Positions 5,914 to 64,000 of a DNA stretch of 64,000 bases are shown in pieces (the first letter of the stretch is position 1; every line of letters begins with the position of its first letter). Made by a program: the position numbers and the translations under genes. This stretch comes from an uncultured Victivallales bacterium (GTDB taxonomy: Bacteria > Verrucomicrobiota > Kiritimatiellia > UBA8416 > CAZWPN01), in contig CAZWPN010000005.1 in the NCBI GenBank assembly GCA_964635275.1, positions 643 through 64,642 on the forward strand. The letters are read 5' to 3'. The notes under the pieces were generated by a model. It saw only the letters and a list, made by a program, of their open reading frames with translations, did not search any database and had not been told where the DNA came from.

Positions 5914-5917
5914 CAAA

Positions 5918-7141: not shown

Positions 7142-7185
7142 GGCCGAGGGCCGCGGCGAAACAAGTCAAGGAAAGGCAGGTAACT

Positions 7186-10949: not shown

Positions 10950-10990
10950 TGCTGGCGGGAAGCAGGTTCTCGAGGCAAAGGGGTGTGCAT

Positions 10991-27939: not shown

Positions 27940-28144
27940 GGCAGGGCCGTTCTGTGTGCTGCTTTGCATGGACGGAAGATTGCCAGAGGAATGGCGTATG
28001 GTCAAACGTCTTGTCACAGCTTTTTAAGGCTTGCCAACGCAGGTGTTTCTGGCGTATTTTCCACCGCTTGCATGTGTATGACACGACTGCTCCGTCTGGG
28101 GGCGGAGGGGATCGGTCGTGCTGTGGGTACAACCAGGAAATGTT

Positions 28145-43804: not shown

Positions 43805-43805
43805 G

Positions 43806-48050: not shown

Positions 48051-48216
48051 TGAATCACGGCCCCTGACACGGTGCGTACCGGGATTCTGTCTAATTCCTG
48101 TGCCCGGAGTCCATCCCGATTCCCCGGCACGTCTTTAAACCCTTATGCCAGCGCCCAAACGGATTTCTTGCATGGTTACGGAAGAAAAGGATACCGGTAG
48201 CCGGAAACGGGCAGGA

Positions 48217-48609
48217 TTACTCCCGCCAGAGCAATAAACCGGAGACGCTTGAGAAGTGCGTGTCGTAGGTTACCAGGCGAGACCCGCTTTCGGTGGCGTG
48301 GGCGGCGATCCAAATATCATTGACGGGGATTGGCGTCCCCGCTTTGCGAAGCCGGTGTTTGATGGTGCCGAATATATCCGATGTCTCCCGCGTCGCTGAA
48401 AGGACGCGCACAGTTGGCCGGCGAAGAAAACCATCCAGTTGGGTGCGGTTTTCCATTTCCCTGGCGCCCCCCTTGAAACCCGCATAGAGTTCCCCGAGAA
48501 CGAAAACAGACATGAAGACCGTATCAGCATGGCCCAACACATCCAGAACAGCTGTCTCGCCTTGGAGCAGACGCGTGTAGGCGTTGGTATCCAAGAGTAT
48601 CTTGCTCAC
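48217..48609 (-). CDS. vapC: PIN-domain ribonuclease toxin VapC
   Basis: 'ILLDTNAY', an acidic PIN triad context, and 'VTYDTHF'. There is a 4-bp overlap with the upstream antitoxin. Confidence 0.85.
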   Translation of the reverse strand: MSKILLDTNAYTRLLQGETAVLDVLGHADTVFMSVFVLGELYAGFKGGAREMENRTQLDGFLRRPTVRVLSATRETSDIFGTIKHRLRKAGTPIPVNDIWIAAHATESGSRLVTYDTHFSSVSGLLLWRE

Positions 48610-48863
48610 TTCCAGTCTCCCGGATCGACAGTTTCCATGTCGGCGACACGTTCCTCAAACGCCCGGGCATCTTCCTCTTTCCACGTTCCGCAGAACTCCA
48701 AAAAATCGCCCCGATGTGGTGGTTCGGCGGCCAACTTGATGCCCAACCCCTCCGCCAAGAGTTGTTTCACAAGTACATTCATACTGACAGATTGTTCCTT
48801 GGAACGTCGCTTGATCAGCTCCGCCAACTGATCGTCAAGACCATGTATGGTGAGTGAGTTCAT
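48606..48863 (-). CDS. vapB: VapB-like antitoxin
   Basis: A small protein ('MNSLTIHGLDDQLAELIKRRSKEQSVSMNVLVKQLL', RHH/AbrB-like) translationally coupled to vapC. Confidence 0.6.
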   Translation of the reverse strand: MNSLTIHGLDDQLAELIKRRSKEQSVSMNVLVKQLLAEGLGIKLAAEPPHRGDFLEFCGTWKEEDARAFEERVADMETVDPGDWK

Positions 48864-49193
48864 TCCGGCCTCCATATGAATCGCATAGTGAGTCACAGTG
48901 TGGACCAGATAGTACGTATTACGACTCACAACGTCAACCAACGAATTTGAGCCACATGATTTCCCATCCGGGCGCTCTATTTCATTCACTGCGAAAGACG
49001 ATGGCATAAAGGACTGGTTTTGGTGCTCTCAGCCCAACCTCGGCGCTCCGACAAAGCCCTCTCACACTGCTGTTGCCCTCCTGCCCGCTTCTGGTGCAGC
49101 TTCTGCCATGAATTCATTCATGCATGCCGATCTCAACGGGCGTGTGCCCGTAATACTTGAAAAGCGAGATCCCGGACCACCCCGAAGTTCTGG

Positions 49194-49331
49194 TTATAAA
49201 TGGTCAGCGACGGCTCTGCCGCTGCCAACCCCGCCGCTACCGTTGGCTTCATCGCCCATGGCAACACTGTTGACGGTCACGATGGCGCACGCCGCGAATA
49301 CCAATCTGAATCGTCTCATCATTTCACTCAT
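49194..49331 (-). CDS. Possible small secreted peptide (45 aa), not in the ORF track
   Basis: Good SD 'GAGAAGGTG' 5 bp upstream of the ATG. Signal-peptide-like 'MSEMMRRFRLVFAACAIVTVNSVAMG' followed by a Gly/Ser-rich tail. Purely ab initio. Confidence 0.2.
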   Translation of the reverse strand: MSEMMRRFRLVFAACAIVTVNSVAMGDEANGSGGVGSGRAVADHL

Positions 49332-49370
49332 CACCTTCTCTCCAAGTCTTACCTATTGGTTCCTGCCGTA

Positions 49371-49392
49371 CACCGCGCCACACCGTGGCGCC
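49371..49392. repeat. REP-like hairpin element copy 1 (CGCGCCACACCGTGGCGCCCTA; stem GCGCCAC/GTGGCGC, loop ACC)
   Basis: 22/22 nt identical to the copy at 59573-59594. Intergenic, ~45 bp past the 3' end of the minus-strand gene 49434-51377. Confidence 0.6.
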
Positions 49393-49433
49393 CTAAAAAT
49401 AGCCAGTGCTTGAAGATCATGACTCATCAATGG

Positions 49434-51377
49434 TCAGTCCTTCTGCGGCACTGGTTTGAGCGCGGTTTCAAGCTGAGCGGGGGTCAGAATACGAACGCTA
49501 CCGTCGCAGAAGGCGACGCAGACGGGTTGTGTATCCGGTCCCGGCGGTGCGTAGGCCAGAACCGTCTCGTTGGGATTCTTGACTGAATCCAGCGGACGGC
49601 CGGTCACGGCCGGATTCAGCCGGAAGAACTGCCCGCTCCTGGCGTCGCGCAAGGCCGTGTCCTTATCGCCGACATACCGCTTGAGATCCGCAATCTCCGC
49701 AGGCAGTTTCTGATACTCCATCGCATACGTGTGGCAGGCCATGGCGACTTGCCTGAGACTGTTCCTTGTTTGGTTCTGGGTGTTCTGCGCAACGGCTGCG
49801 CGCCCCGCGCCAGCCAGGAGCCGTACGATGCCGGCCGCGAGATTCCGGCTGCCGCCTTCGACCCGGAGCGTCACTCCTGCAGCGTCGGAAGTCAGGCCTG
49901 CTGTAATCCGTTCCAAGCCGGACTGAGGAAAGCATCGGGCAGCGTCCAGCGTCGCAAATGCCATCGCGCCGGGCTGGCGCGCCGCCAGTGTCTTGCCAAT
50001 GCTGTCGCCTCCTTCAATGAAGTGCTTAAGGAAGCGTTCCGCGCCGGCCCGCGTCTGGCCGCGTGAGGGCGCCACCAGCACCACAGTGCCTTTCAGTGCG
50101 ATCAGTGCCTCGTCCGTTCTCCATACCGTCACGCCCCGCAGTTCCTCCTTACCCGCCTTGCCTTCCTTCTCCACCCGCGCCATCAGAACCCGCACAGAAG
50201 TCAGCATGCTCGTGGCATCCTTACCTTCGAAATATAGGGCCCCGCCGTGGTCGAGTTCCAATCCCCTGGCTGGATCCGTCACCACCACGGCAGCCGCGAC
50301 GAGGTTGGAGACGAGGTCAGCCTGGACGTCCAAGCCTGTTTCCCTGCGGAAATCTCGGATGAACTCCTCGCGTGGGCCTGTTCCGCCGTGTTCAAAGATT
50401 GCGATGTGGCCGAATCCAGCCTCGAGGAGATCCCATACCTTTGCCGTATCCCGGACACTGACCGCAAGCGCCAAACTCGCGTCCGCAGGAATGGCATCCA
50501 GCAGCGCCGGCGGGCGCTCGGGCGGCTTCAGTGCGGCCGCCAGCGGACTGCCCGGATCAATCTCTGCCCGCAGCACGATGGCGTCTCTGGTAACGCGCAA
50601 CGCCGCGCCACGCCATGCCGGCAAATCAAAGAACGCGCCGGCGGCCATGAACTCGGCACTGTCATGGTCTCCCATGGCAGGCAGAAGGCCGTTCACGACA
50701 GCGCCCACGTCGGCACGCATCTGGAGCAGCGGACGCGATGTTCCCGACACATCCAATCGGGCGGACGGGGGCGTTTTGGCAGCCGCAGCCGCCTGGAGCA
50801 GAAACGTCTCCGCCGCCATCGTATCGGAGGCCAGTACCAGCATTCCGTTGATTTCGGTGAGCCAGAGCGCCTCCCTCGGGTGGCGGCTCACGGAATGGAG
50901 TGTACGTCCCGCGTATACCACGGTGCGGCAGGGGCCGGCGTCGGACGCGCCCGCGACCGGATTGTTGGACAGCAACCTGGGCAGAATGTCGGGGGCGCCT
51001 CCACGATCACACACGACGACGAAACGAGGCCGTCGGCGATCGGCCATCCCCAGGGGCCAGAGTCCGACGGTGCGCACACGGGCGACGGCGTCGCGAAGCG
51101 CGGCGGGGTCCAGGCGCGTCCGCTCGCTCATGGCTTCAATGGCCTCGCCGTAGGCGGCCTCGGGCGTGCGGCCGTCGAACAGGGCCTTGGCCAGTTCGGG
51201 GTCCTCCCGGATCATCGCGCGCAATTGTGCGACGTCCAGCACGGCGGCGCCAACTGCCACGGTGGGCGTCAGGGATTCGAGTGCGATTCCACGATCGGCG
51301 TCCTTCGAACTGTCCGGAACGCTGAGGAACAGAACGAGAAGCAGTTTGAAGAATCCACTGACACTGATAGCTTCCAT
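49434..51377 (-). CDS. Secreted protein with a large unknown N-region and a DUF1559-like C-terminal domain
   Basis: Signal peptide 'MEAISVSGFFKLLLVLFLSV'. The C-terminus 'LRQVAMACHTYAMEYQKLP...VCVAFCDGSVRIL' resembles the H-x9 and '(F/L)ADGSV' ends of planctomycete DUF1559 proteins. The pilin-like N-helix is absent. Confidence 0.55.
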   Translation of the reverse strand: MEAISVSGFFKLLLVLFLSVPDSSKDADRGIALESLTPTVAVGAAVLDVAQLRAMIREDPELAKALFDGRTPEAAYGEAIEAMSERTRLDPAALRDAVARVRTVGLWPLGMADRRRPRFVVVCDRGGAPDILPRLLSNNPVAGASDAGPCRTVVYAGRTLHSVSRHPREALWLTEINGMLVLASDTMAAETFLLQAAAAAKTPPSARLDVSGTSRPLLQMRADVGAVVNGLLPAMGDHDSAEFMAAGAFFDLPAWRGAALRVTRDAIVLRAEIDPGSPLAAALKPPERPPALLDAIPADASLALAVSVRDTAKVWDLLEAGFGHIAIFEHGGTGPREEFIRDFRRETGLDVQADLVSNLVAAAVVVTDPARGLELDHGGALYFEGKDATSMLTSVRVLMARVEKEGKAGKEELRGVTVWRTDEALIALKGTVVLVAPSRGQTRAGAERFLKHFIEGGDSIGKTLAARQPGAMAFATLDAARCFPQSGLERITAGLTSDAAGVTLRVEGGSRNLAAGIVRLLAGAGRAAVAQNTQNQTRNSLRQVAMACHTYAMEYQKLPAEIADLKRYVGDKDTALRDARSGQFFRLNPAVTGRPLDSVKNPNETVLAYAPPGPDTQPVCVAFCDGSVRILTPAQLETALKPVPQKD

Positions 51378-51425
51378 ATGCGTGCCTTTCCTGTTGTTAC
51401 AACCATCCGCCCACGTGTGACAGAA

Positions 51426-54400
51426 CTAAAACGCGTACTTGATCTGAACGCCGCCGTTTTTTGTACGCCGCATCTGCTCGAACAACTGGATGTTCTTGCC
51501 CTGGATTTCCTGCTGGCCCTGGCGAAGGTTGTACTGGTAGTCCATCGACTGTTTTGGGAGTGGGGCCTGCTGCGGTTGCGGATCCGCTCGTTCCGCCGCC
51601 CCCAGCCAGTTGGCGCCGCGGTAGAAGGCGTACCGCGCCTCGCCGTCCCGTGCAATCACGGTCGCCTTTCCGCGCAGCCCGTCCGCCGCGAAGATCCCCC
51701 GCAGGTCCGTCTCGCCGCTCTTGAATTCGCGGTCGGCGCTGCCGATCGCCTTGACGTGTACCCCGGCCCGGTAGCCGCCCTTGGCGGCATCGAGCACGTT
51801 GGCGCGGACCTGCCCGCTCACCGCATCTTCCTGGACCTCCATCTTGAGCGGCGTCAACAGCACCAGGCCGCTCGAGAACAAATCGTCCCCGCGGCAGATC
51901 ACCAGGTACGCGCCGTCTTCCTTGAGGGCCAGTCGCGCCGTCTTCTCCTTCTCGACATAGTCCTTGCCGTCACCCAGCGGGACGATTACCTCGACCTCGG
52001 GCTTGATCCCCGCCAGACGCACACTGGTAATGTTGCTAAGGTTCTTCTCTCGCAAATAGAGTTTCATCAGGTCGACCCGGTAGACCTGCAGCGCCGCCTC
52101 GCGGATGTTCCTGTACTTGATCGTCACTTCCACCGGCGCTCCGGGCCGGAATACCGTGACTTCCTCCAAGGCCAGACGTTTCTCCTCGAAGTACGCAATA
52201 GCCTCTTTCGCGTCGCGGTACTTGTCCTGTACCTTCCGATACCATTCAATCGCATCGGGAGGCTTGCCTTCGGCGTGAAAGATCTGGCCCACAATATACC
52301 CGGCAAAGTCGTGGTCTGCGCTGTCGCCTTCGGCCACGGCCCGAGCCGCGTTCAACGCGCCTTGGTAGTCCTTCTGCCAGAAGAGGCCAAGGGCCGTCAT
52401 GTACTGGAAGCTGCTCAGCACCGGACTGTTGGTGTAGAGCGCCGTAAACCGCCGGCTCAAGTCCACCACCCGGCCGTAACCCTTGAGATCCAGCCATGTG
52501 TTGCACAGGCTGAACGCCGCGTCGTCCGCCAGCGGATCGTTCGGATAAAGCGCCAGGAACTGGTTCAATGTGGCCGCCGCGCGCCCGAGCATGGCGATCT
52601 TCTCCGGCACGCGCACGCCTTCCTTGGGCAGCTGGTGCGCATTCGGTGCCTTTTCCAGCAGCGTCTGGGCCAGCGCGAACCAGGAACTGACCACCTCTGC
52701 GGTGTCCGGATACTCGCGCCAGAGCCGTTCCTGGTAGTCAATGGCGCCCAGGAGGCGCCCCTGATCCTGGAGCGTCGCGCTCACGCCGGAGTCGTTGATG
52801 AAGCTGGCGGCGATGGTCGCCCGCGCAACAAGGCAGGCGCGCTCGAATTCGCCGATGTCCCGGTAGGCCCGCGCCACGATCAGGATCTTGTCGAACGGAA
52901 TCTCCAGTTCCGGATAGCGCTCGCGCAGGATCTCGAACATCTCGACGATCTTTCGGGCGTCATACCAGGCCTGCATCGTGTGAATCCACAGGAGCATACG
53001 GGCCGTGTCACGTTCGCTGTGGGCCCGGTTGCGCTTGAACAGTTCCGCCAGATTCTCCAGCGCCTTGTCGTAAACCCCATCCTCGAAATACAACCGGCCC
53101 AGCGCGAATAGCTCATCGTTGTTGATCTGGAATGGATCGGGCGACTTCTCACCCGGTGCCAGCACCTCGATCCGCATGGCCGGACCCACCTTCATGCGGG
53201 CTGGATTCACGGCATCGCGCATCGTCGTCGGCAGCGCCCGGTAAACGCCAGGCGCGTAAGCCACCAACTGGTAACTGAAGTCGCCGATATAGTTGCCGGC
53301 AAAGTACATGATGATCTTTCCCGGCGCCGTCTCGAAATGATTGAAGTTCCCCTGCAGCGATCCCTCTACCAGCGTGGTTCCAGCCGGCAGCGGCTCCTCA
53401 ACCACCATGTACCAATTCATTCCTGAATGGACCGTGCTTACCACCACGTCCATGCGCTGACCACTATCCAGCTTTTTCACGGGGGACGTGCTGTTGACGC
53501 CGATCGGACGGCCGCGGTATTCCAACGGCGCATGGCGATAGTTCCGCGAGGAAACAGACGGGTAGGTCCATGACCCGGGGTCCTTAAACTCCGGTGAGAA
53601 CCCGATCAGGCTCGCCGCGTACGCGTATTCACCGCGGCCCTCCATTTTGAAGTCCACCAGGTTCTTTCCGTCCTTGATGAGGGGTAGGGGAACAGCCACC
53701 GCGAGTGTGCTTGCACTGCCGCGCACGGTCAGGTTCGTGACCGTCTGTCCGTTCACCAGCACGCCGATCTGGTAGTCCGCGTCCGCCTCCTGCGCATGCC
53801 CGAACCATGCGGCCAGCGCCGCCACCACCGGTCCGCGTGCCTTGGCGGGGGCGATGCCGCCGCATCCCCGCGCGTTCAGCAGGTACTCCGCGGCGGCCCG
53901 GGCCACCGGCGACGCCGGCCGCCCACGCGCCAGCGCCATCAGCGTCAGGGCCGTGGTTTCGACGCGATCTTTCATCCATTCGTGGCGCGCCTTGGGATCC
54001 CATGAGAGCGTGCGTTTGGCCACATCTCTCCCCGCCTCCCCGCGCGCCTCCAGCAAGTCGAGCAGTTCTTTCGCGAAGTCGGGTCGGTCGAGGTTCAGGA
54101 ACGCCAGCGCCAGATAGGCCAGTGCTGCGTTCCCCATGCTCTGCCGTTCGCGATGCAACCGGTTGCAGTTCGCGAAATCGGCGGCCTTGTTCACCGACAG
54201 GGCATGCAGGACTACCGCCTTGGCATCGTTGTCGGTGGCCTCGAACGACTGCAGGTTGGCCATAAGGAATCCCTGCGCCCGCGCCACAGCATCGGTGTGA
54301 ATGGCAACGCCCAGATCCCGCGCCTGGATCAGCGCCCAGAAGGCACGGGCGCTGGCGGCCCAATCGGATCCACTGCTTTGCCCTTCCCAGGACCAGCCGC

Positions 54401-57400
54401 CGTCATTGCGCTGGGAGGCGACCAGCCCGCTGGCCAGGGCTCGGGAACCCTCCAGCAACTGAATAACATCCAGTTCGGGTGCCTTTCCGCGGCGCGCGTA
54501 GTCAAGCCCCGCCACCTTGGACAGCAACTCGCTGCCGTCCGTCCCGCCCCATTGGCAACCCCACGACGCCGGGACAGAGCACGCGAAGCCCCGCGCCCCC
54601 GGACGGTCCGACAACGCGAGGTCCAGCACGGTCCGGCTCAGCGTCGGGCCGACAGACATGAGCATCCACTTGCTGGAATACTTCTGACCGGCCGGCAGTT
54701 CCAACACCAGTCCCACATCGCCAGAGGCCGTTCCGCCTCCGTGCGCAGCGTACTCTAACCCGTACAACTGCACCGGCGTATCGAGCGTCAATGCGTCCGC
54801 CTGATCGCCCGCGCGAGCCCGCACGGTCCACGTCACGCCCGGTACGGCGGGGATTTCGACGGCATCGAATACCACCTCGACCCCGCTCCCGGCCTTGACC
54901 TCCACCGCCTTCTCCTGTTTCGCTGTTGTTGCGCCATCCTTGCCGGTGGCCGCCATCTCGAGTTCCAGCCGCACCGAACCCAGATCGTTGGACGTGAGAT
55001 TATGAACCCGGGCCAGTACCCGGATCGAGTCGCCTTCCTGAAGCGAACCCGGCGACTTGATCTCGATAAAGAAATCCTTGCGGGTCAGCGTCTTCGACCG
55101 CGCTTCGCCCACGAGCGTTTCGACCGAGCAGCCGCGTGCCGTGAGACGCCATTCCGTGGTCCTTTCGGGTAGCCGCACGGACACCACCGCTTTGCCGGCG
55201 GCATCGGTCACGATGTCAGGGAACCATCGGCCCTCCTGGGGAATCTCCCGGCGGACCTGCTCCTCACCGCCGCCCAGTCCCGCGCCCCCACCCGCTATCA
55301 TAAGATCGCTTCTTCGGCCACCCGGCGACCGGCTGGGGAAGGCACCTTGCATGACGACCGGGGCGTTCACCATTCCGGAAATGTCGGCCGGCTCGTTCAT
55401 CAGCCGCCCATCGCCGTCTGCGTTTTGTTCTTCCGTGCCGTTGGCCCACCCCACAGATTGTCCGGGTGGTCTGGAGACCTTGTCCTGCATGGATCGTGGT
55501 GCGTCCGCCAGTTGCGTGGCCTCAACCAGTCTGCGGGAATCCAGTTCTCGCCGTGCCCGATCCATCCGCTCACCCTCGGCCTGGATCGCCTTGACCACTG
55601 CGCGGGTGACGCCCGCATAACGGAATCCGCAGGTGGCGCCCGTCCGGAACTCGGCAAACCGGCGCGCATCGCGCTGGAAGAAGTCAAGGATGGCCGGCGT
55701 GCGGTCGGCCATGACGGCGAAAACGCCCTCATCCACCAGCGCCAGGCTCAACTCGGCCTTCACCGGCCGGCCCAGTTGATCTGTCACGGTGAGTTCGACC
55801 CTGCCATCCTCGCCGGGCAGGAAGGCGGCCTTGAGCGGCTTGACCGTCACCTTCAGTTCGCGTTCTACCGTTAAATCCTTCGCGGCAGCCCGAAGTTCCC
55901 GTCCGTCCATCAACGCCACGGAGACCCGGAAATTCGGGAAGTGTTCATGGCCCACTTCGAAACCGAGATCGTTGTATCCCTCGCGCACGGGAACGATGTG
56001 GTAGCGGAGGATCGTCTCCGCCTCGTGGGTCACCAGCGCCAAGGCATCCTTCAGCCGCGCGTGCAGGCGCAGCTCCGCCCGCCCGCCGACCCGCAACTGG
56101 GTGCTCTGTGTGAACAGGCGCAGCTTAACAGCATCGTCGCTGCCGGATACCTGCAAGGCGCCCTGGCCGGTGACCGTCTGGTCGAATTGATCCTGGCCGG
56201 TAACGCGGAGGACATACGGACCGCCCTTATCCAACGTAACATTCTGCGAGACGGCGCCGCTGAGCGGATCTGTCTTCAGCTTGAACTCCTGTACCTTCGC
56301 TTCGGCCTGGCCGCCGGCAATGCCTTCCGATGCCCAGGGCAGCATGCTGAGAATGACGTTCGGCGCGTCCTGTTCCAGGCGCAGGACCGTGAGCGTCACG
56401 TCGCGACCTGCCGGTTTGCCGTCCGCAGCGACGGCCTTCACGATAATATCCACGGATTCACCGGCCAGCACCGTTTCCTGACTGGGCTTCACCGAAAGAT
56501 CGAACCCGCGCATGGCCAGCATGGCCACGCTGGTGACCGAGACATTCTCGCCTTCGAGCGAGGCAAAGAATGGCAGCACCTGGCCCGGAATGCCGGGAGT
56601 TGTGTCGAACGTGAACCGGACCTTGCCCTTGTCGTCCGTTACCCCGCTCAACACCCGGCCGTCCGGCAGCGTGTAGCGGACAGGCTTCCCGGTAACCGGT
56701 TCGCCCCAGTAGTATTCCGCGCGCGCTTCCAGTTCCACGATTTCCCCCCGGAAATAGACGGTCCGGGGCATGTCCAGCGTCAGCCGGATCTTTTCCGGCG
56801 TGAAGATCTTGACGGCAAATGTTCCGCTGAAACTCAGCGGCTCCCGGTTCTTGCGTACCGCCCGTGCCATGATCGCATAGGTGCCCTCCGACGCCATGTC
56901 GGGGAGGCTGAACGCAGTGTGGAACGTGCCGAATTCGGACAGCTTGAGACTCTCCTCGCGCATGAGGCGTCCCTTGGAGTCCGTCACGGAAACCGTAAAC
57001 GTCTCGTTCTGCGGTACGATGTAGGAGCCCTCGCGCACATCGCGCAGGATGCCGCGGATGGCCACCTTGTCGCCAGGCTTGTAGACGGGCCGGTCGGTGT
57101 ACAGGTAGCCTTTCGGCACCAGGCTGGAACTGAGCCGGAGTCCGGAAAGATCCATGTTTTGAGCCGCCACGTGACCATCCTTGATCGCGAAAACGCGCAA
57201 GTCAGCTGGTGTTTTGAGTTCCTCGCCACTGTAGCGGTAGACGCCGTCCGCGCCGGTTGTGCCAGTCGCCACGATTGCCTTGCCGTCGCTCAGCAGTACC
57301 TTCACTCCGGGCGAGGGCTGTTTGGAGACCATGTTCTCCACGAACACCAGGGCTTCCCGGCGGCTGCTCTTTGTGATGAGTTCGATGTCTGACCGGATCG

Positions 57401-59453
57401 CCAGCGTGGTGGCCTCCCAATCGTCCTCGCTGACATTGACCACGCAAACGCCCGGTTTGCCTTCGGCCAAGGGAATTTCGATTTCCTGCTCGAAAGGCTT
57501 GTACTTGGCAAAGCCGTCGACCTTGAACTCCATGGTACGGTCCGGCTGGATGAGCGAAATGTCGAGGTCCTCGACGTTGCCGGTGCCGTGTGTCTTCCGG
57601 AAGAATGCTTCGAGGTCGAGGGTATAGTGCTTGACCGTCACCTTCGGGATGTTACGGGTGCGCAGGAGGACCTTGACCGGTTCGCCAGTGCGGCAGGTGC
57701 GGGGCGAGGATAGGGTCAGTTCCTTGCCGGTCATGGCCGCGACCCGGTTCCGGGCCATGCCGACGCAACTTCCCCATGCCACGCGGCGGTATTGGTCGAG
57801 CGCCTTTTCCAGGTCGCCGAGTTTCTCCTCGTAGATCTGTGCGGTCCGATGGAGCGCCTGAGACGATTCCTCGGTGTTCGGATACTTGCTGATGAGCGGC
57901 GCCCACTCCTCGATGGCAGCCTTGTACTCCGCCTCGATCTCGGGCCGCGCCGCCTTCTTTTCCTCCAAGTCATGCGCATGCGCGTAGCGGATCTGGCCGA
58001 AGATAAAGAGGATCTGGCGGGAACGCTGATCGAGGGGATGCGCGGCCAGAAAGGCCTCGAACAGGCGACGCGCCTCGGACTCCTTCTTATCCGCCAACGC
58101 CCGGATCCCCTTTTGGTACTCGGCGCCTATGATCCGGTTCTGGCACTCAGCCCACTTCGGGCCGTTGGGGAAACGCGTCACGTAGTTCTGCCACTCGATG
58201 ATCGCTTCGTCGTACTTCGCCTGGGCGTAGAGAATGGAGCCCACCTGGGCCAACGATTCCTTCTCCCAGCCGTCTTTCATTTCCGCGGGGGATTTGCCGG
58301 TTTCCGGATCGCGCTCGGTCGCCAAGGCGCCTTCGGGCAAGGCATAGCCCTTCCCGGCCGCGAAATCGCGATAGGCCTGCACGGCCTCTTCGCTTCGGCC
58401 TCTGGACTGGAACGCCTGGCCGATCTCGAAAGCTATGCGCACGGACCGGCGGTCCCGCGGAAAACGTTCCAGGAAGGCGCGCGCCGCTCGCATGGCCGGC
58501 TCGAGATCAGGGGAGCCACCTTGCGCAAGACTGTAGGTTCGGGTCAGGAGCCAGGCGATGTCTGCCCGGAAGTCCGGCGACACGGAGGCATCCTTGTCAA
58601 TCATGGAGGCCAGATCCTCCAGTTCGCGGCGGGCGTGCGCGGGATTCCCCGCTTTTCGGTAGGCATCGGCCAGCCCGTAGCGCGCTGCCCATCGTTGCTT
58701 GCCGGGCGGCGGCGGATTCTCCTGCCGCAACCGTGGTGCGACGCCCGCGCCGCCGACGCCCGACCAATCGGGGTCGAACTCCCGCAGGTAGTAGCTGAAG
58801 TCGTTGACGGACTGTACGACGTTGCCGGCCTTTTGGATCGCCATCGCCCGTTTGAACAGCACTTCCTCGCGCAACGCGCGGCCGATCTGCATCTCCATGA
58901 CCTTGCCGTACAGGGCGTACGCCTTGTTGTAGTCTGGCGGCGGGGCGTCGAGCGCGTTCGGCGGCGGGGTGGTGGCCAGCTCGTCGGCGAAGGCCACGAT
59001 CACGGATGCAATCTCTTGCTTCCTCGATTCCGAGAGCAGGCGGTTGGCCTCCTCGGAATAGATTGCTTCGGCCTCCTTAAACTTCCTGGCGTCGTACAGC
59101 GCGCGGGCCTTGAGGAAGCGGATTTTGCGGTACCAGGGCGAGCCGGTGTCATCCGCCAGCTCGTCTGTGGCAGCCACCGCGGCTGGCAGATTGCCCTTGT
59201 AGAATAGCGCCAGCGCCTTCAGGAAACCGGCCTCGCCGTTGGTTACGCTGTGCGCGGCCAGGACAGGCCCGATGGCCTTGAGAGCCCCGTCGAAATCCCG
59301 CATGCGCAGGCTTTCCCTCGCCGATTCCAGTGGGTTAGGGGCAGCGGTGGGCTTGTCCGACGGTGCGGCAAGCCCTGTGAGCAAGAGAGATGCGCAAACC
59401 GGCAAGGCCAGAAAGTCATGTCGAAACGAACGCAGTGTGAGGAACGATTTCAT
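51426..59453 (-). CDS. Giant (2675 aa) secreted alpha-2-macroglobulin-family protein flanked by N- and C-terminal TPR arrays
   Basis: Signal peptide, TPR repeats at both ends, and central MG (Ig-like) domains. An alpha/alpha-toroid TED-like region ('GLVASQRNDGGWSWEGQSSGSDWAASARAFWAL'). No CxEQ thioester motif was seen. Confidence 0.7.
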   Translation of the reverse strand: MKSFLTLRSFRHDFLALPVCASLLLTGLAAPSDKPTAAPNPLESARESLRMRDFDGALKAIGPVLAAHSVTNGEAGFLKALALFYKGNLPAAVAATDELADDTGSPWYRKIRFLKARALYDARKFKEAEAIYSEEANRLLSESRKQEIASVIVAFADELATTPPPNALDAPPPDYNKAYALYGKVMEMQIGRALREEVLFKRAMAIQKAGNVVQSVNDFSYYLREFDPDWSGVGGAGVAPRLRQENPPPPGKQRWAARYGLADAYRKAGNPAHARRELEDLASMIDKDASVSPDFRADIAWLLTRTYSLAQGGSPDLEPAMRAARAFLERFPRDRRSVRIAFEIGQAFQSRGRSEEAVQAYRDFAAGKGYALPEGALATERDPETGKSPAEMKDGWEKESLAQVGSILYAQAKYDEAIIEWQNYVTRFPNGPKWAECQNRIIGAEYQKGIRALADKKESEARRLFEAFLAAHPLDQRSRQILFIFGQIRYAHAHDLEEKKAARPEIEAEYKAAIEEWAPLISKYPNTEESSQALHRTAQIYEEKLGDLEKALDQYRRVAWGSCVGMARNRVAAMTGKELTLSSPRTCRTGEPVKVLLRTRNIPKVTVKHYTLDLEAFFRKTHGTGNVEDLDISLIQPDRTMEFKVDGFAKYKPFEQEIEIPLAEGKPGVCVVNVSEDDWEATTLAIRSDIELITKSSRREALVFVENMVSKQPSPGVKVLLSDGKAIVATGTTGADGVYRYSGEELKTPADLRVFAIKDGHVAAQNMDLSGLRLSSSLVPKGYLYTDRPVYKPGDKVAIRGILRDVREGSYIVPQNETFTVSVTDSKGRLMREESLKLSEFGTFHTAFSLPDMASEGTYAIMARAVRKNREPLSFSGTFAVKIFTPEKIRLTLDMPRTVYFRGEIVELEARAEYYWGEPVTGKPVRYTLPDGRVLSGVTDDKGKVRFTFDTTPGIPGQVLPFFASLEGENVSVTSVAMLAMRGFDLSVKPSQETVLAGESVDIIVKAVAADGKPAGRDVTLTVLRLEQDAPNVILSMLPWASEGIAGGQAEAKVQEFKLKTDPLSGAVSQNVTLDKGGPYVLRVTGQDQFDQTVTGQGALQVSGSDDAVKLRLFTQSTQLRVGGRAELRLHARLKDALALVTHEAETILRYHIVPVREGYNDLGFEVGHEHFPNFRVSVALMDGRELRAAAKDLTVERELKVTVKPLKAAFLPGEDGRVELTVTDQLGRPVKAELSLALVDEGVFAVMADRTPAILDFFQRDARRFAEFRTGATCGFRYAGVTRAVVKAIQAEGERMDRARRELDSRRLVEATQLADAPRSMQDKVSRPPGQSVGWANGTEEQNADGDGRLMNEPADISGMVNAPVVMQGAFPSRSPGGRRSDLMIAGGGAGLGGGEEQVRREIPQEGRWFPDIVTDAAGKAVVSVRLPERTTEWRLTARGCSVETLVGEARSKTLTRKDFFIEIKSPGSLQEGDSIRVLARVHNLTSNDLGSVRLELEMAATGKDGATTAKQEKAVEVKAGSGVEVVFDAVEIPAVPGVTWTVRARAGDQADALTLDTPVQLYGLEYAAHGGGTASGDVGLVLELPAGQKYSSKWMLMSVGPTLSRTVLDLALSDRPGARGFACSVPASWGCQWGGTDGSELLSKVAGLDYARRGKAPELDVIQLLEGSRALASGLVASQRNDGGWSWEGQSSGSDWAASARAFWALIQARDLGVAIHTDAVARAQGFLMANLQSFEATDNDAKAVVLHALSVNKAADFANCNRLHRERQSMGNAALAYLALAFLNLDRPDFAKELLDLLEARGEAGRDVAKRTLSWDPKARHEWMKDRVETTALTLMALARGRPASPVARAAAEYLLNARGCGGIAPAKARGPVVAALAAWFGHAQEADADYQIGVLVNGQTVTNLTVRGSASTLAVAVPLPLIKDGKNLVDFKMEGRGEYAYAASLIGFSPEFKDPGSWTYPSVSSRNYRHAPLEYRGRPIGVNSTSPVKKLDSGQRMDVVVSTVHSGMNWYMVVEEPLPAGTTLVEGSLQGNFNHFETAPGKIIMYFAGNYIGDFSYQLVAYAPGVYRALPTTMRDAVNPARMKVGPAMRIEVLAPGEKSPDPFQINNDELFALGRLYFEDGVYDKALENLAELFKRNRAHSERDTARMLLWIHTMQAWYDARKIVEMFEILRERYPELEIPFDKILIVARAYRDIGEFERACLVARATIAASFINDSGVSATLQDQGRLLGAIDYQERLWREYPDTAEVVSSWFALAQTLLEKAPNAHQLPKEGVRVPEKIAMLGRAAATLNQFLALYPNDPLADDAAFSLCNTWLDLKGYGRVVDLSRRFTALYTNSPVLSSFQYMTALGLFWQKDYQGALNAARAVAEGDSADHDFAGYIVGQIFHAEGKPPDAIEWYRKVQDKYRDAKEAIAYFEEKRLALEEVTVFRPGAPVEVTIKYRNIREAALQVYRVDLMKLYLREKNLSNITSVRLAGIKPEVEVIVPLGDGKDYVEKEKTARLALKEDGAYLVICRGDDLFSSGLVLLTPLKMEVQEDAVSGQVRANVLDAAKGGYRAGVHVKAIGSADREFKSGETDLRGIFAADGLRGKATVIARDGEARYAFYRGANWLGAAERADPQPQQAPLPKQSMDYQYNLRQGQQEIQGKNIQLFEQMRRTKNGGVQIKYAF

Positions 59454-59545
59454 GCGAACTCCTTTTCCGAATGCGGCAGAAAGGCGAAGTATCGCGCATC
59501 CTGCCTTGTTCTTCCACTTCCACTTCTACTTTCTTTCCTGTAGGA

Positions 59546-59594
59546 CCGCACGGTGTGCGGTCGGATCTCGCGCCACACCGTGGCGCCCTACAGA
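59546..59594. repeat. Two adjacent hairpins: GACCGCAC-GGT-GTGCGGTC and REP-like copy 2 (CGCGCCACACCGTGGCGCCCTA)
   Basis: Perfect inverted repeats read directly from the sequence. The second is identical to 49371-49392. A CT-rich 'cttccacttccacttc' tract lies upstream. Confidence 0.6.
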
Positions 59595-59661
59595 GCCGGA
59601 ACGGCGGCTACACCCTCCATTTATGCGCTTCCATGTTCTCCGGGGAATATTGTGCCCCTCC

Positions 59662-60792
59662 CTATTTCCGGATGCCGCAGACAATCTTAATCTCATCGTC
59701 TGACAGGACGCGGTTGTAGATGCGGATGTCGTCCAGTCTGCCGTTGAAGTAGTTGTTACTGCCGGGGTCGAAGTCCGCGTCCTTGCGCTTGCCGATCCGC
59801 AGCGGTTCGGTGGTGGGCTGTGAAAGAATGTGCCCGGTCTGGGTTTGTTCGGTGTAGATCAGGTCCCCGGTCTTCTGGCCGTCGAGATACACGCGCACGC
59901 GATTGTCTTCCCGGGAGATCGTGACTGCCAGATGGTGCCACTGGCTGCTTTTCAGAGACTTCAGAGGGAAGGTGTGTCCTTCGGAGCACATGTAGGGGGC
60001 CACCTGACTGCAGACATACACATGCCACAACCCTTCGTTGACATGGAAATTCAGGTCAAATTGGCCGCCATGATTGGACGAGGTGGGACTGTGATCCTGC
60101 GTCAGACTCCCGGACGGTTGTTTCGTGATAAAGAAGTGTGAACTGCGCCCGTGGCGCTGGTCATCCACCGGACAGACCCAGGCGGCAATGGTGATCTCCG
60201 TGAGCGCGTCGTAGACGCCGCTGGAGGGAACTTCGATCCACGCGCTCTTGCCGTCGAACGACATGGCACAGTCGGGGCGGTTACTGCGATCTGGCGCAGG
60301 TTTGGCGCCGCGCAGGATGCCGTTGCACTTGTTCTCGCTGGCGTCGTTGGCTGTGCCATCATTGAAGTTGTACCAGGCTATCAATCCATCCTTGGTTCCC
60401 GCGCCATCCAGGCCGCCGGGCAGAAGCCGAAGTTTGCGGATATGTTCGATGCGCACCGTGACCTTGCCGAACGCCGTTTCGAGCGGGATGGGGCCGAGAT
60501 TGATCACGCCTTTGATCGTGTCGCCGTTCAGCAGGTCGAAGGACACGGTTTCATGATCCTCACCTATCTTCATGCCCACGATCTGACTGAACGGCAGTTT
60601 CATTTTGGCATAGGGTGTCTCCACAGGCACGGAGTCTACGTTTGGGGTGCCGATGATGTGCGAGCCGTCCACGAGATCCAGTTTGAGACGGAGCTGTTGC
60701 GGTGCTTCTTTCGTATTGTCCGGTCCACCCCAAGCGCTTCCGCCTAGCGCCAATGCCAGCAGGGCCACCATCCTGATTGCAGCGATCTTCAT
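59662..60792 (-). CDS. Secreted LamG-like (Laminin_G_3/concanavalin A-like) domain protein, paralog 1 of a tandem array
   Basis: Signal peptide and a conserved N-module 'LRLKLDLVDGSHIIGTP...GEDHETVSFDLLNGDTIKGVINL'. The LamG_3 C-terminus has 'LIAWYNFNDG' ... 'GRLDDIRIYNRVLSDDEI'. Confidence 0.7.
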   Translation of the reverse strand: MKIAAIRMVALLALALGGSAWGGPDNTKEAPQQLRLKLDLVDGSHIIGTPNVDSVPVETPYAKMKLPFSQIVGMKIGEDHETVSFDLLNGDTIKGVINLGPIPLETAFGKVTVRIEHIRKLRLLPGGLDGAGTKDGLIAWYNFNDGTANDASENKCNGILRGAKPAPDRSNRPDCAMSFDGKSAWIEVPSSGVYDALTEITIAAWVCPVDDQRHGRSSHFFITKQPSGSLTQDHSPTSSNHGGQFDLNFHVNEGLWHVYVCSQVAPYMCSEGHTFPLKSLKSSQWHHLAVTISREDNRVRVYLDGQKTGDLIYTEQTQTGHILSQPTTEPLRIGKRKDADFDPGSNNYFNGRLDDIRIYNRVLSDDEIKIVCGIRK

Positions 60793-60877
60793 TGCGCTCG
60801 TCTCCTTTAAAATCCAAACGTTGCCGTTGAGGGCTTCGTCCCGTCGCCGGCGGCTTCAACTTCCTCTGCTGTCTCCG

Positions 60878-61915
60878 TCACTTCCCGGCGTCGTAGAGCA
60901 GCTTCACTTCGATGTCTGTTAGGGCGCGGTCAAAGATCATGACTTCATCGATCAGCCCCTCGAATCCGTAGTCCGCAACTGATGTTCCTCCAATCTCCAG
61001 GGGAGCGCTCACAGTCTTGTCCACGTTGTGGGGAACGCCCATGCTTCGGGCGATCGGACGCTCCTCAGCGTTATGAAAGATGCGCCATGTGCCGGCTTTG
61101 CACACCAGGGTAACGAGGCTCCATTCCTCTCTGGAAAACGACGCTGAATACTGCGCCCAATGGTCCGTCTGGAATGTCGTGTAGTAGGCACCTTCAGAAG
61201 GGAGGGTGAGCAGATTCATGCCCAACCCATTCCGGGCCAGGTCCCATTTTGTTATCAGGCATTTGTGCTGGAAGTCGCCTTCTGGTTTCCACCACAGGGC
61301 GTAGGTCTTGTCCTCCGTGAGTTTAAGGCTGAAATCCTTGCTGTCCGCCACTTCAATACGTTCCCGCCTGCCGCTAAAACGGAATGCCCCGCCCGCCTTG
61401 CCTTTCGACGTCCATTTTGCGCCATGCACGTCGCCCTGGTTGTTCTTTCCGCTCGCATCCGCTACTTTCCCGCCCTCGTCCCGGTCGAACGCATAGTACA
61501 GGACCAGTCCTTTTCGTAGAGCCTCCGGCAATGCGCCGCCCGTCCGCACGATCGTGAACTGCCGGATGTGTTCGACTCCGATGGAGACCGGGCCGAAGAC
61601 AGTGGTCAGCTTGATCGGCGCCAGAGTGATGACGCCTTTCAGCTTGTCGCCGTTCTGTAAATCGAAGTCTACTGTTTCGTGATCTTCCCCAATCCTCATG
61701 GTCCGGATTTGTCTGAGCTGCACATTCATCTTGGCGTAAGACGTCTCCACAGGTACCGTCTCGATGCCGGGGGTTCCGATGATACGTGAGCCGTCAACCA
61801 GATCCAGTTCAAGGCGCAGGGGCAGTTCCTTCGGAACGTTGTTTTCGCCGGCCGCCGTGATCAGAACCGTTACCGCGAGAATCAGAACACAAAGCGTGAA
61901 TCGGTGCATGTCCAT
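60878..61915 (-). CDS. Secreted LamG-like domain protein, paralog 2
   Basis: Same N-module ('LRLELDLVDGSRIIGTP...GEDHETVDFDLQNGDKLKGVITL') plus a LamG_3 C-terminus ('GLIDEVMIFDRALTDIEV'). Confidence 0.7.
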   Translation of the reverse strand: MDMHRFTLCVLILAVTVLITAAGENNVPKELPLRLELDLVDGSRIIGTPGIETVPVETSYAKMNVQLRQIRTMRIGEDHETVDFDLQNGDKLKGVITLAPIKLTTVFGPVSIGVEHIRQFTIVRTGGALPEALRKGLVLYYAFDRDEGGKVADASGKNNQGDVHGAKWTSKGKAGGAFRFSGRRERIEVADSKDFSLKLTEDKTYALWWKPEGDFQHKCLITKWDLARNGLGMNLLTLPSEGAYYTTFQTDHWAQYSASFSREEWSLVTLVCKAGTWRIFHNAEERPIARSMGVPHNVDKTVSAPLEIGGTSVADYGFEGLIDEVMIFDRALTDIEVKLLYDAGK

Positions 61916-61936
61916 CTCCTTTTCTCGTGCCGTTGC

Positions 61937-63001
61937 CTAGTTCCTGTCCCTTTGCATATCACACAAAACCTTGATCTCTTCCTCCGACAGTGCTCGCCTG
62001 TATATGCGCACCTCGTCCACCGTACCGTTGAAATACATGTCAGACCAGTCAATGAAGGGCTTCACGGCGGTGGTGCCGATCACCAGTTTGCTTGTGGGAT
62101 TGTCTACGAGCGGTTGTCCCGGTCGCCCGCCGCGTGCTTCTCCATCCAGGCTGCCGTTGACATAGAAACGCCCGACCTGTCCGTCATAGGTCATGCAGAC
62201 GTGATACCACTGCCCAAGAACCGGATACGGAGTGACCCCTGCCTGAAAGGTTCGCGTGGGTAGGGCCAGCGGTCCCACACCCCGGCCCCCCGTGTTCCAC
62301 TTCCCGCCATACTCGCCGCCTAACTGAATGCCAAACCCGCCCCCCCTTGTGCCGGCGACTTCGCCCCGGCCGATGAGGCTGCCGTAAGTGGTATACTGCT
62401 GAAACCGGCACCAGAGGGAAACGGTGATCTCCCGCCAGCCGTCGGTGTTCAATTCCTTGGCATCGGAAAGGATGTAACTGCCCGGGCCGGTGAACCGCGC
62501 GCCTTTCCCTTTACGCCCTGTCTCATACTGGACGGAGCCCACCGTGTAACCGTCATTTCCTCGTCCGCTGCTATCTTTGACCCCACCCGATTCGTCTTCG
62601 TCAAATGTGTAGTGCAGGACCAAACCCGCATCTCCACGGCTACCCGTGAAGGCGATACTGCGGCACTGCGTCAGCGGCACATCCACTCTTCCGAACAGAG
62701 TCTGCATCGGGAACGCGGGCAGATCCAGAACGCCCGTAAGCCGGTCGTTGTTCACGAACAGGACGACCGCAGTCTCTCGGTCCTCGTTGAACTGGACACT
62801 CCGGATTTGCCCAAGCGACATCTCGATCTTGCCGAGCGCACCAACGAAAGGGATAGACGTAGCCGTCGTGGTTCCGATCAGGCGCGAACCGTCGGCAAGA
62901 TCCATCGAAATGCGAACCTGTTCATTGCTCTTCTCCCCAGCCTGGGCAGCCAGAGCGATTCCGACCATAGCCGCCGCTATGCTCATCCTTTTGGTGTTCA
63001 T
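61937..63001 (-). CDS. Secreted LamG-like domain protein, paralog 3
   Basis: A divergent copy of the N-module ('ISMDLADGSRLIGTT...NEDRETAVVLFVNNDRLTGVLDL') plus a LamG_3 C-terminus ('GTVDEVRIYRRALSEEEI'). Confidence 0.7.
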   Translation of the reverse strand: MNTKRMSIAAAMVGIALAAQAGEKSNEQVRISMDLADGSRLIGTTTATSIPFVGALGKIEMSLGQIRSVQFNEDRETAVVLFVNNDRLTGVLDLPAFPMQTLFGRVDVPLTQCRSIAFTGSRGDAGLVLHYTFDEDESGGVKDSSGRGNDGYTVGSVQYETGRKGKGARFTGPGSYILSDAKELNTDGWREITVSLWCRFQQYTTYGSLIGRGEVAGTRGGGFGIQLGGEYGGKWNTGGRGVGPLALPTRTFQAGVTPYPVLGQWYHVCMTYDGQVGRFYVNGSLDGEARGGRPGQPLVDNPTSKLVIGTTAVKPFIDWSDMYFNGTVDEVRIYRRALSEEEIKVLCDMQRDRN

Positions 63002-63135
63002 GGCCTCTCCTTTGGTTTGCCCTTCGAAAACGGCAGTTACTATTAGGTACAGACGGCTGACCCAGCCGTCCGCGGACGCCTCGGTGAGGAGTCCCTACCT
63101 GGCGTCCATATTCATGGGAATCTTCAGTATGGGTG

Positions 63136-64000
63136 CTACTCCTCCGTCCGGTCGCTGAAGTCCGTCTTGGCGTAGTTCCAGATCTTGATGTTGTCGAAGG
63201 CGACGGTCCCGGATGCAAGTGCATGATGTTTCAACAAGCCGATTCTGCTGCCCTTCGGGAGGTCCAGGAAATGCGGGGCATTGCCAAAGATTCCGTGGGA
63301 TGAGTTAAGTTTGCCGTCAACAAAGACGGCTGCCTTGCGGGCGCCGTCTTCGATGCCGGGGATGCCTGCTGTATTCCACACCACGGCATAGTGATGCCAT
63401 TCGGCGATGTTCCCTCCGCCAATGGCGTTGGAATAGGTCCAAGATCCGAAATTGCCGGTCCCGATCCATGCCATGTTCGCTCGCAGGCATATACCGCCGT
63501 TTGCATTGCCGTCATTGGCGGCGAAAAACAGCACTTCGCCTTCGATCTTCTCGGAAGAGCCCCAGCCGATGAGGCCGGGCGCGGCACCACCTGGCAAACT
63601 GGTCGGGAAGTTGCTTATCTTGCACCAGAACTCGATGCAACCGGCGGGCGTCGCCAGCAGATCTGGTGGAAACGTGACACCGAACTGTTCCTGCATGTTC
63701 AGTTCAAGCCCCTGGCCGAAACGCCCGGGCACAAAACGACCGGCATTCAGCTTTCCGCCCGGTCCGACGCGGCTGTTCTTTACGTCGCTTTCCGACCCGA
63801 GCCGGTTCCACAACACCAACCCTTTCTGCCCTGTCCCGCCGCTCATCACGACGTCAAGCTGCTTGATATGCTCGGTGCCGATTGAGACCTGCCCGAAGAC
63901 GGTTGTCAGTTTGATTGGCTTCAGATTGATGACACCTTTAATCTTGTCGCCGTTCTGCAAATCGAAGCTTACGGTCTCGTGATCCTCTCCGATCCTTATG
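63136..64000 (-). CDS. Secreted LamG-like domain protein, paralog 4 (5' end outside the window)
   Basis: The frame stays open to the window edge and encodes '...IRIGEDHETVSFDLQNGDKIKGVINLKPIKLTTVFGQVSIGTEHIKQL', matching the paralog N-module. The listed 'M' is an in-frame TTG. Confidence 0.65.
   Translation of the reverse strand, partial: IRIGEDHETVSFDLQNGDKIKGVINLKPIKLTTVFGQVSIGTEHIKQLDVVMSGGTGQKGLVLWNRLGSESDVKNSRVGPGGKLNAGRFVPGRFGQGLELNMQEQFGVTFPPDLLATPAGCIEFWCKISNFPTSLPGGAAPGLIGWGSSEKIEGEVLFFAANDGNANGGICLRANMAWIGTGNFGSWTYSNAIGGGNIAEWHHYAVVWNTAGIPGIEDGARKAAVFVDGKLNSSHGIFGNAPHFLDLPKGSRIGLLKHHALASGTVAFDNIKIWNYAKTDFSDRTEE

Follow-up and report, generated by a model that had tools for sequence, protein, structure and literature searches.

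A thioester-less alpha-2-macroglobulin-like protein with tetratricopeptide repeat arms at both ends, encoded by an uncultured Victivallales bacterium

Two types of bacterial alpha-2-macroglobulin (A2M) have been described. Type I proteins, among them ECAM/YfhM and Salmonella A2M (SaA2M), carry a CLEQ thioester and a lipobox (LAGC in YfhM) and are found with pbpC. Type II proteins (MagD, YfaS) have an A2M core and a bait without the CxEQ motif, and belong to the six-gene mag operon or to yfaSTAQP; the thioester-less, periplasmic MagD traps TEV protease non-covalently (PMC5764988). The gene described here lies at positions 51426 to 59453 of a 64,000-nucleotide stretch from an uncultured Victivallales bacterium (GenBank assembly GCA_964635275.1, contig CAZWPN010000005.1, positions 643 to 64,642; hereafter the window), and its product is an A2M-like protein of 2675 aa. 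It belongs to an uncharacterised family whose design fits neither type I (ECAM, accompanied by pbpC) nor type II (MagD, encoded in the mag operon). Type I proteins supply its best sequence and structure matches in the PDB, and its terminal beta-sandwiches resemble ECAM MG0-NIE-MG1, but the family has neither the thioester, the lipobox nor pbpC, and adds arrays of tetratricopeptide repeats (TPR) and a C-terminal pair of macroglobulin (MG) domains. With type II it shares the A2M core and a bait without CxEQ, whereas the mag/yfaSTAQP operon is lacking at the family loci and the length exceeds that of type II by about 1100 aa, a TPR-MG module standing at each end. No paper on a TPR-flanked A2M was found in the literature. 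The family represents a third, widespread bacterial A2M design, with a stand-alone gene for a presumably soluble, exported protein with TPR-MG arms at both ends and an unusually long, variable bait.

The gene was considered genuine because homologues spanning its full length, with 30-81% identity, occur in many genomes. The open reading frame (ORF) and Pfam searches bore out what had been proposed from the letters alone (the sequence-only reading), namely a 2675-aa A2M-like protein with TPRs on both sides. MG and A2M domains were detected above the Pfam cut-offs: bMG3 at residues 688-774 (45.9 bits, cut-off 34.9), MG2 at 781-881 (67.8 bits, cut-off 32.8), the bait-region domain A2M_BRD (PF07703) at 1114-1246 (49.2 bits, cut-off 22.7) and A2M (PF00207) at 1410-1491 (59.7 bits, cut-off 21), the last of which aligned with residues 703-856 of human A2M. 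A bMG10 match at 1989-2084 reached 17.3 bits against a cut-off of 26.2 (E 0.005) and is above the cut-off in the relative P0131. When a profile of the family was compared with the PDB, the best solved relatives were ECAM/YfhM (4rtd/5a42, E 4e-39) and Salmonella A2M (E 7e-38), followed by human A2M, TEP1, CD109 and C3/C4/C5.

The thioester-type domain (TED, PF07678) gave no Pfam match in the window protein. The region 1560-1990, unrecognised by Pfam, was matched by hhalign to canonical CxEQ-bearing TEDs (99.9%, E 6e-33), and the segment RNDGGWSWEGQSSGSDW, quoted in the sequence-only reading, sits inside it. An AlphaFold2 (AF2) model of residues 1476-2675 had a mean pLDDT of 86.5 and a pTM of 0.61, with values below 50 in two stretches only, the loop 1617-1634 and the linker ahead of the C-terminal tail. 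Foldseek aligned approximately 690 columns of this model to Salmonella A2M (4u48, E 2e-17), native CD109, ECAM from MG7 to the C-terminus (4ziu, target TM 0.60), C5 and TEP1. Superposition gave a root-mean-square deviation (rmsd) of 6-8 A on native forms versus 14-33 A on protease- or methylamine-activated forms and C3b, the CUB-TED-MG8 head being predicted in a native-like pose. The A2M core, consisting of MG array, bait-region domain, TED and bMG10, is complete except for the thioester.

The absence of a CxEQ motif, noted in the sequence-only reading, was confirmed: C.EQ occurs nowhere in the 2675-aa protein. In hhalign and MAFFT alignments the column of the canonical PYGCxEQT motif falls on a short, gapped and unconserved loop, which reads SWGCQWGGT in the window protein and PPTRWDGF and SPPAWGDT in relatives, and which varies even in orthologues of 77-81% identity. 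The motif was missing in 161 of the 162 family sequences that cover the site. The sole exception was P0131, which carries GGGCTEQTVAAGL in the canonical column (GGGCTEQT, motif GCTEQT); it is a 2698-aa protein of the same full architecture encoded by a stand-alone gene (L093, 8001-16097). A 796-aa ORF beside it was considered as pbpC and rejected, being DUF4159. P0131 is also the one argument for a canonical, covalent thioester A2M whose motif had been overlooked by eye in the window protein; direct reading of the sequence, with no C.EQ and a loop that varies among close orthologues, refutes this explanation and leaves it practically excluded.

A neighbour-joining (NJ) tree of 1410 columns with 100 bootstraps placed the family, P0131 included, in a monophyletic group (99/100), with P0131 among its early-branching members; across two NJ trees the family formed its own clade at 90-99/100. 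YfaS was its sister at a weak 67/100 in one tree, and its placement was unresolved in the other. Because early-branching P0131 keeps GCTEQT at the canonical site, the family stems from a thioester-bearing A2M and the loss is secondary. The thioester was lost in nearly all lineages, probably more than once. Since one member still has it, the loss seems to have arisen within the family, independently of YfaS and MagD, and not to be a simple inheritance from type II. The sequence-only reading had drawn attention to the missing thioester, but its absence is not unusual for a bacterial A2M, as type II proteins also lack it and MagD still traps protease (PMC5764988). With the thioester kept in one lineage and lost in almost all others, the family provides a natural series, with and without it, for asking how prey can be held non-covalently.

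The scan for a bait region returned, besides A2M_BRD, a hypervariable insert between this domain and A2M (PF00207), which is the place of the bait in A2Ms. In an alignment of 58 full-length relatives, residues 1301-1400 showed a consensus identity of 0.12-0.13 and 24-32% gaps, versus an identity of 0.4-0.7 almost everywhere else, and the length of the insert across the family ranged from 87 to 237 aa. Typical bacterial bait-region domains comprise 66-126 aa (PMC12939704). By its position and variability the insert is consistent with a bait, though it is much longer than typical bacterial ones.

TPR regions of about 600 aa had been proposed on both sides of the core. Repeats are indeed present on both sides (Pfam above cut-off: TPR/YfiO-type repeats at 44-560, TPR_12 at 2361-2412), but the lengths differ from that estimate: the N-terminal flank has approximately 530 aa of TPR (about residues 40-571), and in the C-terminal flank (2098-2675) a TPR region of approximately 310 aa is followed by a pair of MG-like beta-sandwiches, together spanning about 190 aa, and by some 60 aa of conserved tail. 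The AF2 model of the C-terminal flank had a pLDDT of 88.1 and a pTM of 0.70, and its sandwiches matched ECAM MG0-NIE-MG1 (4zjg/4zjh) by Foldseek with an E value of 6e-7 and an rmsd of 4.3 A. The tail, which is preceded by a low-confidence linker, has the motif DYxxNLxxxNxxIQ...RRxxxKGVQxxxA across the family.

The two flanks are related. Residues ~257-695 and ~2114-2541 were homologous by hhalign (99.7%, E 1.9e-25, 382 columns), and the first sandwich matched the first C-terminal sandwich (2420-2540) at 98.9% (E 1e-17), while neither of these two matched another MG domain of the same protein (<3%); hence the protein has a paralogous TPR-MG module at each end. The second C-terminal sandwich has a weak likeness to bMG3. 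In the alignment of 58 relatives few regions of the protein, if any, were as conserved as the C-terminal module.

The reading favoured for the family, and given about an even chance, is that of a trap for proteases, located in the periplasm or secreted, which is triggered by its bait and holds prey non-covalently. The domain composition, the missing thioester, the duplication, the conservation of the family and the lack of conserved partner genes were observed; the compartment of export, the trapping of protease and the role of the TPR arms are what we infer. The protein is a predicted Sec-exported, non-lipidated member of the A2M superfamily, derived from a thioester-bearing ancestor and having lost the thioester within its lineage. 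It keeps every part needed for a trap, namely the MG ring, a bait-region domain carrying the long hypervariable insert and the CUB-TED-MG8 head. A protease entering the periplasm or reaching the cell surface would cut the exposed bait, upon which a rearrangement of MG ring and head would confine the protease sterically, with no covalent bond formed, as with the type II protein MagD. The paralogous TPR-MG arms are an innovation of the family and may substitute for the lipid anchor or the operon-encoded partners of other bacterial A2Ms. Conjecturally, they could serve as protein-binding grooves docking the trap to envelope partners, or as extra walls or latches closing a cage, and the tail, together with the arms, is a candidate compensation for the missing bond. 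The family is also a candidate for protecting the envelope in Planctomycetes and Verrucomicrobia, in which the periplasm is of unusual size and activity.

Several points weigh against a trap. The thioester mutant of the type I Salmonella protein fails to trap (PMC5764988), and monomeric type I A2Ms depend on the thioester for retaining prey; a monomeric non-covalent trap therefore needs a compensating feature, and the one proposed here is conjectural. The geometry between the domains is an AF2 prediction with a pTM of 0.61. The insert, longer by far than known bacterial baits, could be a mere disordered linker. Finally, wide and apparently vertical conservation across phyla, with a very conserved C-terminal module, fits a housekeeping role in the envelope better than a fast-evolving defence factor.

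Such a role would be that of an envelope scaffold or coordinator, the TPR arms recruiting factors of peptidoglycan synthesis, Tol-Pal or outer-membrane assembly and the A2M body acting as a rigid spacer or sensor, in effect a single-chain form of the functional pairing of A2M with penicillin-binding protein (PBP) 1c. The TPRs scored 70.6 bits with TIGR02795 (YbgF) over three stretches and 43.9 bits with BamD, and their PDB matches were CpoB (6g5s, E 1e-8), YbgF (2xev) and BamD (3qky). All of these family scores are under the curated equivalog cut-offs (90.1 for TIGR02795), and the repeat type is generic to periplasmic TPR proteins; the TIGR02795 score reflects a likeness in repeat type only. 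A scaffold would also suit the loss of the thioester in nearly all members, the conservation at fixed length across the Planctomycetes-Verrucomicrobia-Chlamydiae (PVC) group and the finding that conservation peaks in the TPR-MG modules. Against it stand the full trap apparatus (BRD, TED, CUB, MG8) and the hypervariable insert at the bait position, both kept under selection, and PBP, Tol-Pal and Bam genes were not conserved neighbours in 69 related loci. This explanation is regarded as unlikely. The sequence-only reading had offered a non-covalent, cage-type trap or a scaffold unrelated to protease inhibition; the former stands as the best reading and the latter appears disfavoured, because the C-terminal flank with its MG domains duplicates the N-terminal module, the insert is hypervariable and bait-like, and P0131 keeps GCTEQT.

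The cage part of that proposal bears on a family described recently under the name CAGE. These proteins of approximately 2100-2360 aa form a tetrameric hollow cage of about 1 MDa with an uncharacterised function, and more than two-thirds of 3,521 homologues are bacterial (bioRxiv 10.1101/2025.09.22.677704). The bacterial members belong mostly to Planctomycetota and Verrucomicrobiota, have signal peptides, and in a few cases bear the name of a 'TPR' or 'MG2 domain' protein; the domain order is N-terminal helical domains, at least six beta-sandwiches, of which domains 4-6 correspond to ECOD YfaS_2nd, A2M_N_2 and MG4, and then helical, beta, helical and beta domains, and the N- and C-terminal helical domains are alike (10.1101/2025.09.22.677704). 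Like CAGE (Tetrahymena CAGE1, Dictyostelium DDB_G0291229), the present family consists of giant exported proteins with helical repeats, an A2M-type sandwich array and then alternating helical and beta domains. CAGE differs in that neither a TED nor Pfam A2M domains can be recognised in it. The link is a lead rather than a finding.

It is only a tentative suggestion that the family is a still-recognisable A2M-type relative of CAGE whose duplicated arms allow it to form a closed hollow container, by assembly or by folding back. In the oligomeric form of this idea, likewise thought doubtful though compatible with a trap, copies of the protein would make up a closed, hollow homo-oligomer related to CAGE, with the TPR-MG arms mediating head-to-tail assembly. 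The order of alpha, beta-sandwich array, alpha, beta, alpha and beta, known for CAGE from the description in the preprint (10.1101/2025.09.22.677704), is shared; the present family has paralogous end modules and a conserved tail beside the TPR groove; and signal peptides and a PVC-centred distribution occur in both. However, bacterial CAGE proteins, shorter by about 550 aa, give no Pfam hits in most cases, whereas A2M domains are clear in the present family, together with a TED; the accessions of the family were not among the best 1,919 rows of CAGE Table S2; and no CAGE entry (11KS/11KT) was among the PDB sequence or Foldseek matches, although these entries may be unreleased. If the relation were true, it would tie the cages found in bacteria and protists to macroglobulins that lack the thioester, would suggest capture or sequestration for both, and would give an evolutionary and functional handle on the newly discovered megadalton cage.

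Among ordinary A2Ms, a hidden Markov model (HMM) of the family core scored thioester-less YfaS (type II) at 246 bits, above YfhM (type I, CxEQ) at 135. The nearest ordinary relatives were three metagenomic proteins of approximately 2000-2260 aa (P0061-P0063; 480-603 bits with the same HMM). Their genes, like those of the family, stand alone without pbpC, but the proteins have CxEQ and PF07678 TED matches and no TPR flanks. Complement C5, which was among the best structural matches, shares the MG-CUB-TED-MG8 fold without a thioester; it differs in lineage, in having an anaphylatoxin domain at the bait position and in lacking TPR modules. Chicken ovostatin is a further thioester-less member of the A2M family with the MG-CUB-TED-MG8 fold, also of another lineage and without TPR modules.

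A first search returned approximately 60 full-length clusters of 2600-2950 aa with 30-81% identity. An exhaustive phmmer search with the C-terminal module yielded 1205 representatives when the threshold was E<=1e-3 and 501 when it was E<=1e-30; the family counts at least 501 clusters at 50% identity. The full-length matches were all of 2536-2933 aa and had the module at the extreme C-terminus, usually with a second match N-terminally. A scan of GTDB species genomes confirmed at least 287 loci, from at least 287 species, in Verrucomicrobiota (Akkermansiaceae, Prosthecobacter, Opitutales, Pedosphaera, Chthoniobacteraceae), Planctomycetota (Pirellulales, Phycisphaerae, Brocadiia, Isosphaeraceae, Tepidisphaerales), Lentisphaerota and Poribacteria. 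The closest match among those listed, at 92%, was labelled an uncultured Akkermansia-like metagenome-assembled genome. In databases the only names given to these proteins are 'tetratricopeptide repeat protein' and 'MG2 domain-containing protein'. By eye, the N-termini of the family all resemble Sec signal peptides without a conserved lipobox Cys; in the window protein Cys20 is not conserved (Phe in the 81% orthologue P0002), and there is thus no lipobox.

Shorter versions of the protein proved to be fragments. C-terminal modules of about 600 aa that seemed to stand alone on long contigs were rejected, the gene being a single one that was split: on a contig from a long-read metagenome (L092, 3910-11887) it is called as three consecutive ORFs (1625 + 381 + 628 aa), which probably reflects frameshift errors and would explain the many 'stand-alone' TPR fragments in protein databases. 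Variants of approximately 1800-2050 aa were rejected as N-terminally truncated fragments. When a profile of the C-terminal module was searched against a set of 5.8 billion proteins, the matches listed were all of 1,106 aa or less and read as family fragments, distant full-length relatives being beyond the reach of this search. On the contig of the 81% orthologue (L005, 19806-27084), a second, ordinary A2M of 1396 aa with a TED_complement match is encoded together with a VIT/VWA protein just downstream, and such organisms can therefore carry more than one type of macroglobulin.

Table 1. Features of the A2M-like gene and its predicted product; coordinates are positions in the window.
Feature	Residues	Coordinates	Strand	Basis
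Whole ORF	1-2675	51426..59453	(-)	2675 aa + stop codon, ATG start; homologues covering full length
Sec-type signal peptide	1-30	59364..59453	(-)	Basic n-region, hydrophobic core, ..GLAA/PS; judged by eye
N-terminal TPR block a	40-256	58686..59336	(-)	Pfam TPR_16/ANAPC3; hhalign to other TPR blocks 95-97%
N-terminal TPR block b (YbgF/CpoB-, BamD-like repeats)	257-571	57741..58685	(-)	Pfam YfiO 409-541; hhalign to C-terminal TPR 97.7%
First beta-sandwich (MG0/NIE/MG1-like)	572-685	57399..57740	(-)	Paralogue of C-terminal sandwich 1
bMG3 + MG2	688-881	56811..57392	(-)	Pfam above cut-off
Further MG domains + A2M bait-region domain (1114-1246)	886-1246	55716..56798	(-)	Pfam A2M_BRD; profile match to ECAM, Salmonella A2M
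Bait-like insert	1285-1400	55254..55601	(-)	Conserved amphipathic helix, then hypervariable low-complexity stretch
A2M (PF00207) domain	1410-1491	54981..55226	(-)	Pfam 59.7 bits
Thioester-type domain (alpha/alpha toroid) without thioester	1600-1885	53799..54656	(-)	hhalign, AF2 helices, Foldseek to Salmonella A2M, ECAM, CD109, C5
Loop in place of canonical PYGCxEQ site (..SWGCQWGGT..)	1617-1634	54552..54605	(-)	Column variable and gapped in 161/162 family members; pLDDT <50
CUB return strands + MG8/bMG10	1893-2097	53163..53777	(-)	Sub-cut-off Pfam, beta in model, within ~690-column Foldseek alignments to 4u48, 4ziu
C-terminal TPR solenoid	2112-2422	52188..53120	(-)	AF2 pLDDT >90; Foldseek to CTPR and OGT TPRs
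Two C-terminal MG-type beta-sandwiches	2426-2617 (2426-2533, 2536-2617)	51603..52178	(-)	AF2; Foldseek to ECAM MG0-NIE-MG1
Conserved C-terminal tail	2641-2675	51429..51533	(-)	Family consensus; predicted helix + short strand (2641-2670), pLDDT 85-94

The immediate neighbours are as the sequence-only reading described them. Downstream of the A2M gene lies the gene of a 647-aa protein with a weak DUF1559-type tail, and upstream an array of LamG (Laminin_G_3) genes with four paralogs of 274-376 aa (window 59662-63960, minus strand). Both paralogs scanned against NCBIfam, at 59662-60792 and 60878-61915, gave weak TafC-like fimbrial matches. A LamG gene is also located downstream of the 81% orthologue on L005, and the neighbourhood is not kept more widely. 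These four paralogs and the LamG gene on L005 would favour a secreted or surface adhesin, or a protein capturing polymers or peptides, which binds via its MG/Ig-like domains and TPRs. This is held to be improbable, as the LamG neighbourhood is not conserved past close relatives, and BRD, TED, CUB and MG8 in a native-like geometry are specific to A2M-type machines.

The use of these neighbours as a contextual clue did not survive comparison with 69 related loci. LamG and DUF1559 genes are not conserved with the A2M gene there; an operon partnership with them was rejected, and this context is therefore incidental and uninformative on function. No conserved partner gene was found past close lineages, either by Pfam in seven neighbourhoods or by clustering the neighbour ORFs of the 69 loci, where only lineage-level synteny and ubiquitous PSCyt1 paralogues recurred. 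Neither pbpC nor mag/yfa-type genes (DUF2138, DUF1175, DUF2300, DUF2135) occurred in the window, the seven neighbourhoods or the 69 loci. The statement that the A2M gene has no pbpC neighbour was thus upheld; no transglycosylase domain was detected in window ORFs of 600 aa or more, and the sole PBP is a class-B PBP2 encoded with RodA about 45 kb away. A scan for promoters and terminators revealed nothing informative, and PADLOC gave no anti-phage defence hits.

Further downstream, a PIN-domain toxin and a ribbon-helix-helix antitoxin gene, overlapping by 4 bp, lie between the 647-aa gene and two giant ORFs (window 48217-49007, minus strand). The adjoining giant ORFs of 1324 and 1414 aa (39830-48050, minus strand) matched no Pfam, NCBIfam or PADLOC family, the 1414-aa ORF having sub-threshold matches to BiPBP_C and Reg_prop. 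Its BiPBP_C match was considered as a sign of a pbpC-like neighbour and rejected, as it is below the cut-off and not accompanied by a transglycosylase or transpeptidase domain. An arn-like cluster (lipid A aminoarabinose modification) at 21200-28017 on the minus strand comprises genes for an ArnT/PMT-type glycosyltransferase, a polysaccharide deacetylase, an ArnA-like formyltransferase-epimerase fusion, a GT2 and a DegT-type aminotransferase. A block of envelope housekeeping genes at 4093-14181 on the plus strand encodes PBP2, RodA, RNase G and LptD, followed by an NAD-dependent epimerase and a family-B DNA polymerase. The G+C content was 0.62-0.65 in most 2-kb bins of positions 40000-60000, which hold the giant ORFs and the A2M gene, and 0.57 at 48001-50000, while elsewhere in the window it was 0.55-0.62. 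At 40000-60000 the GC skew was mostly negative, matching the minus-strand placement of most genes there.

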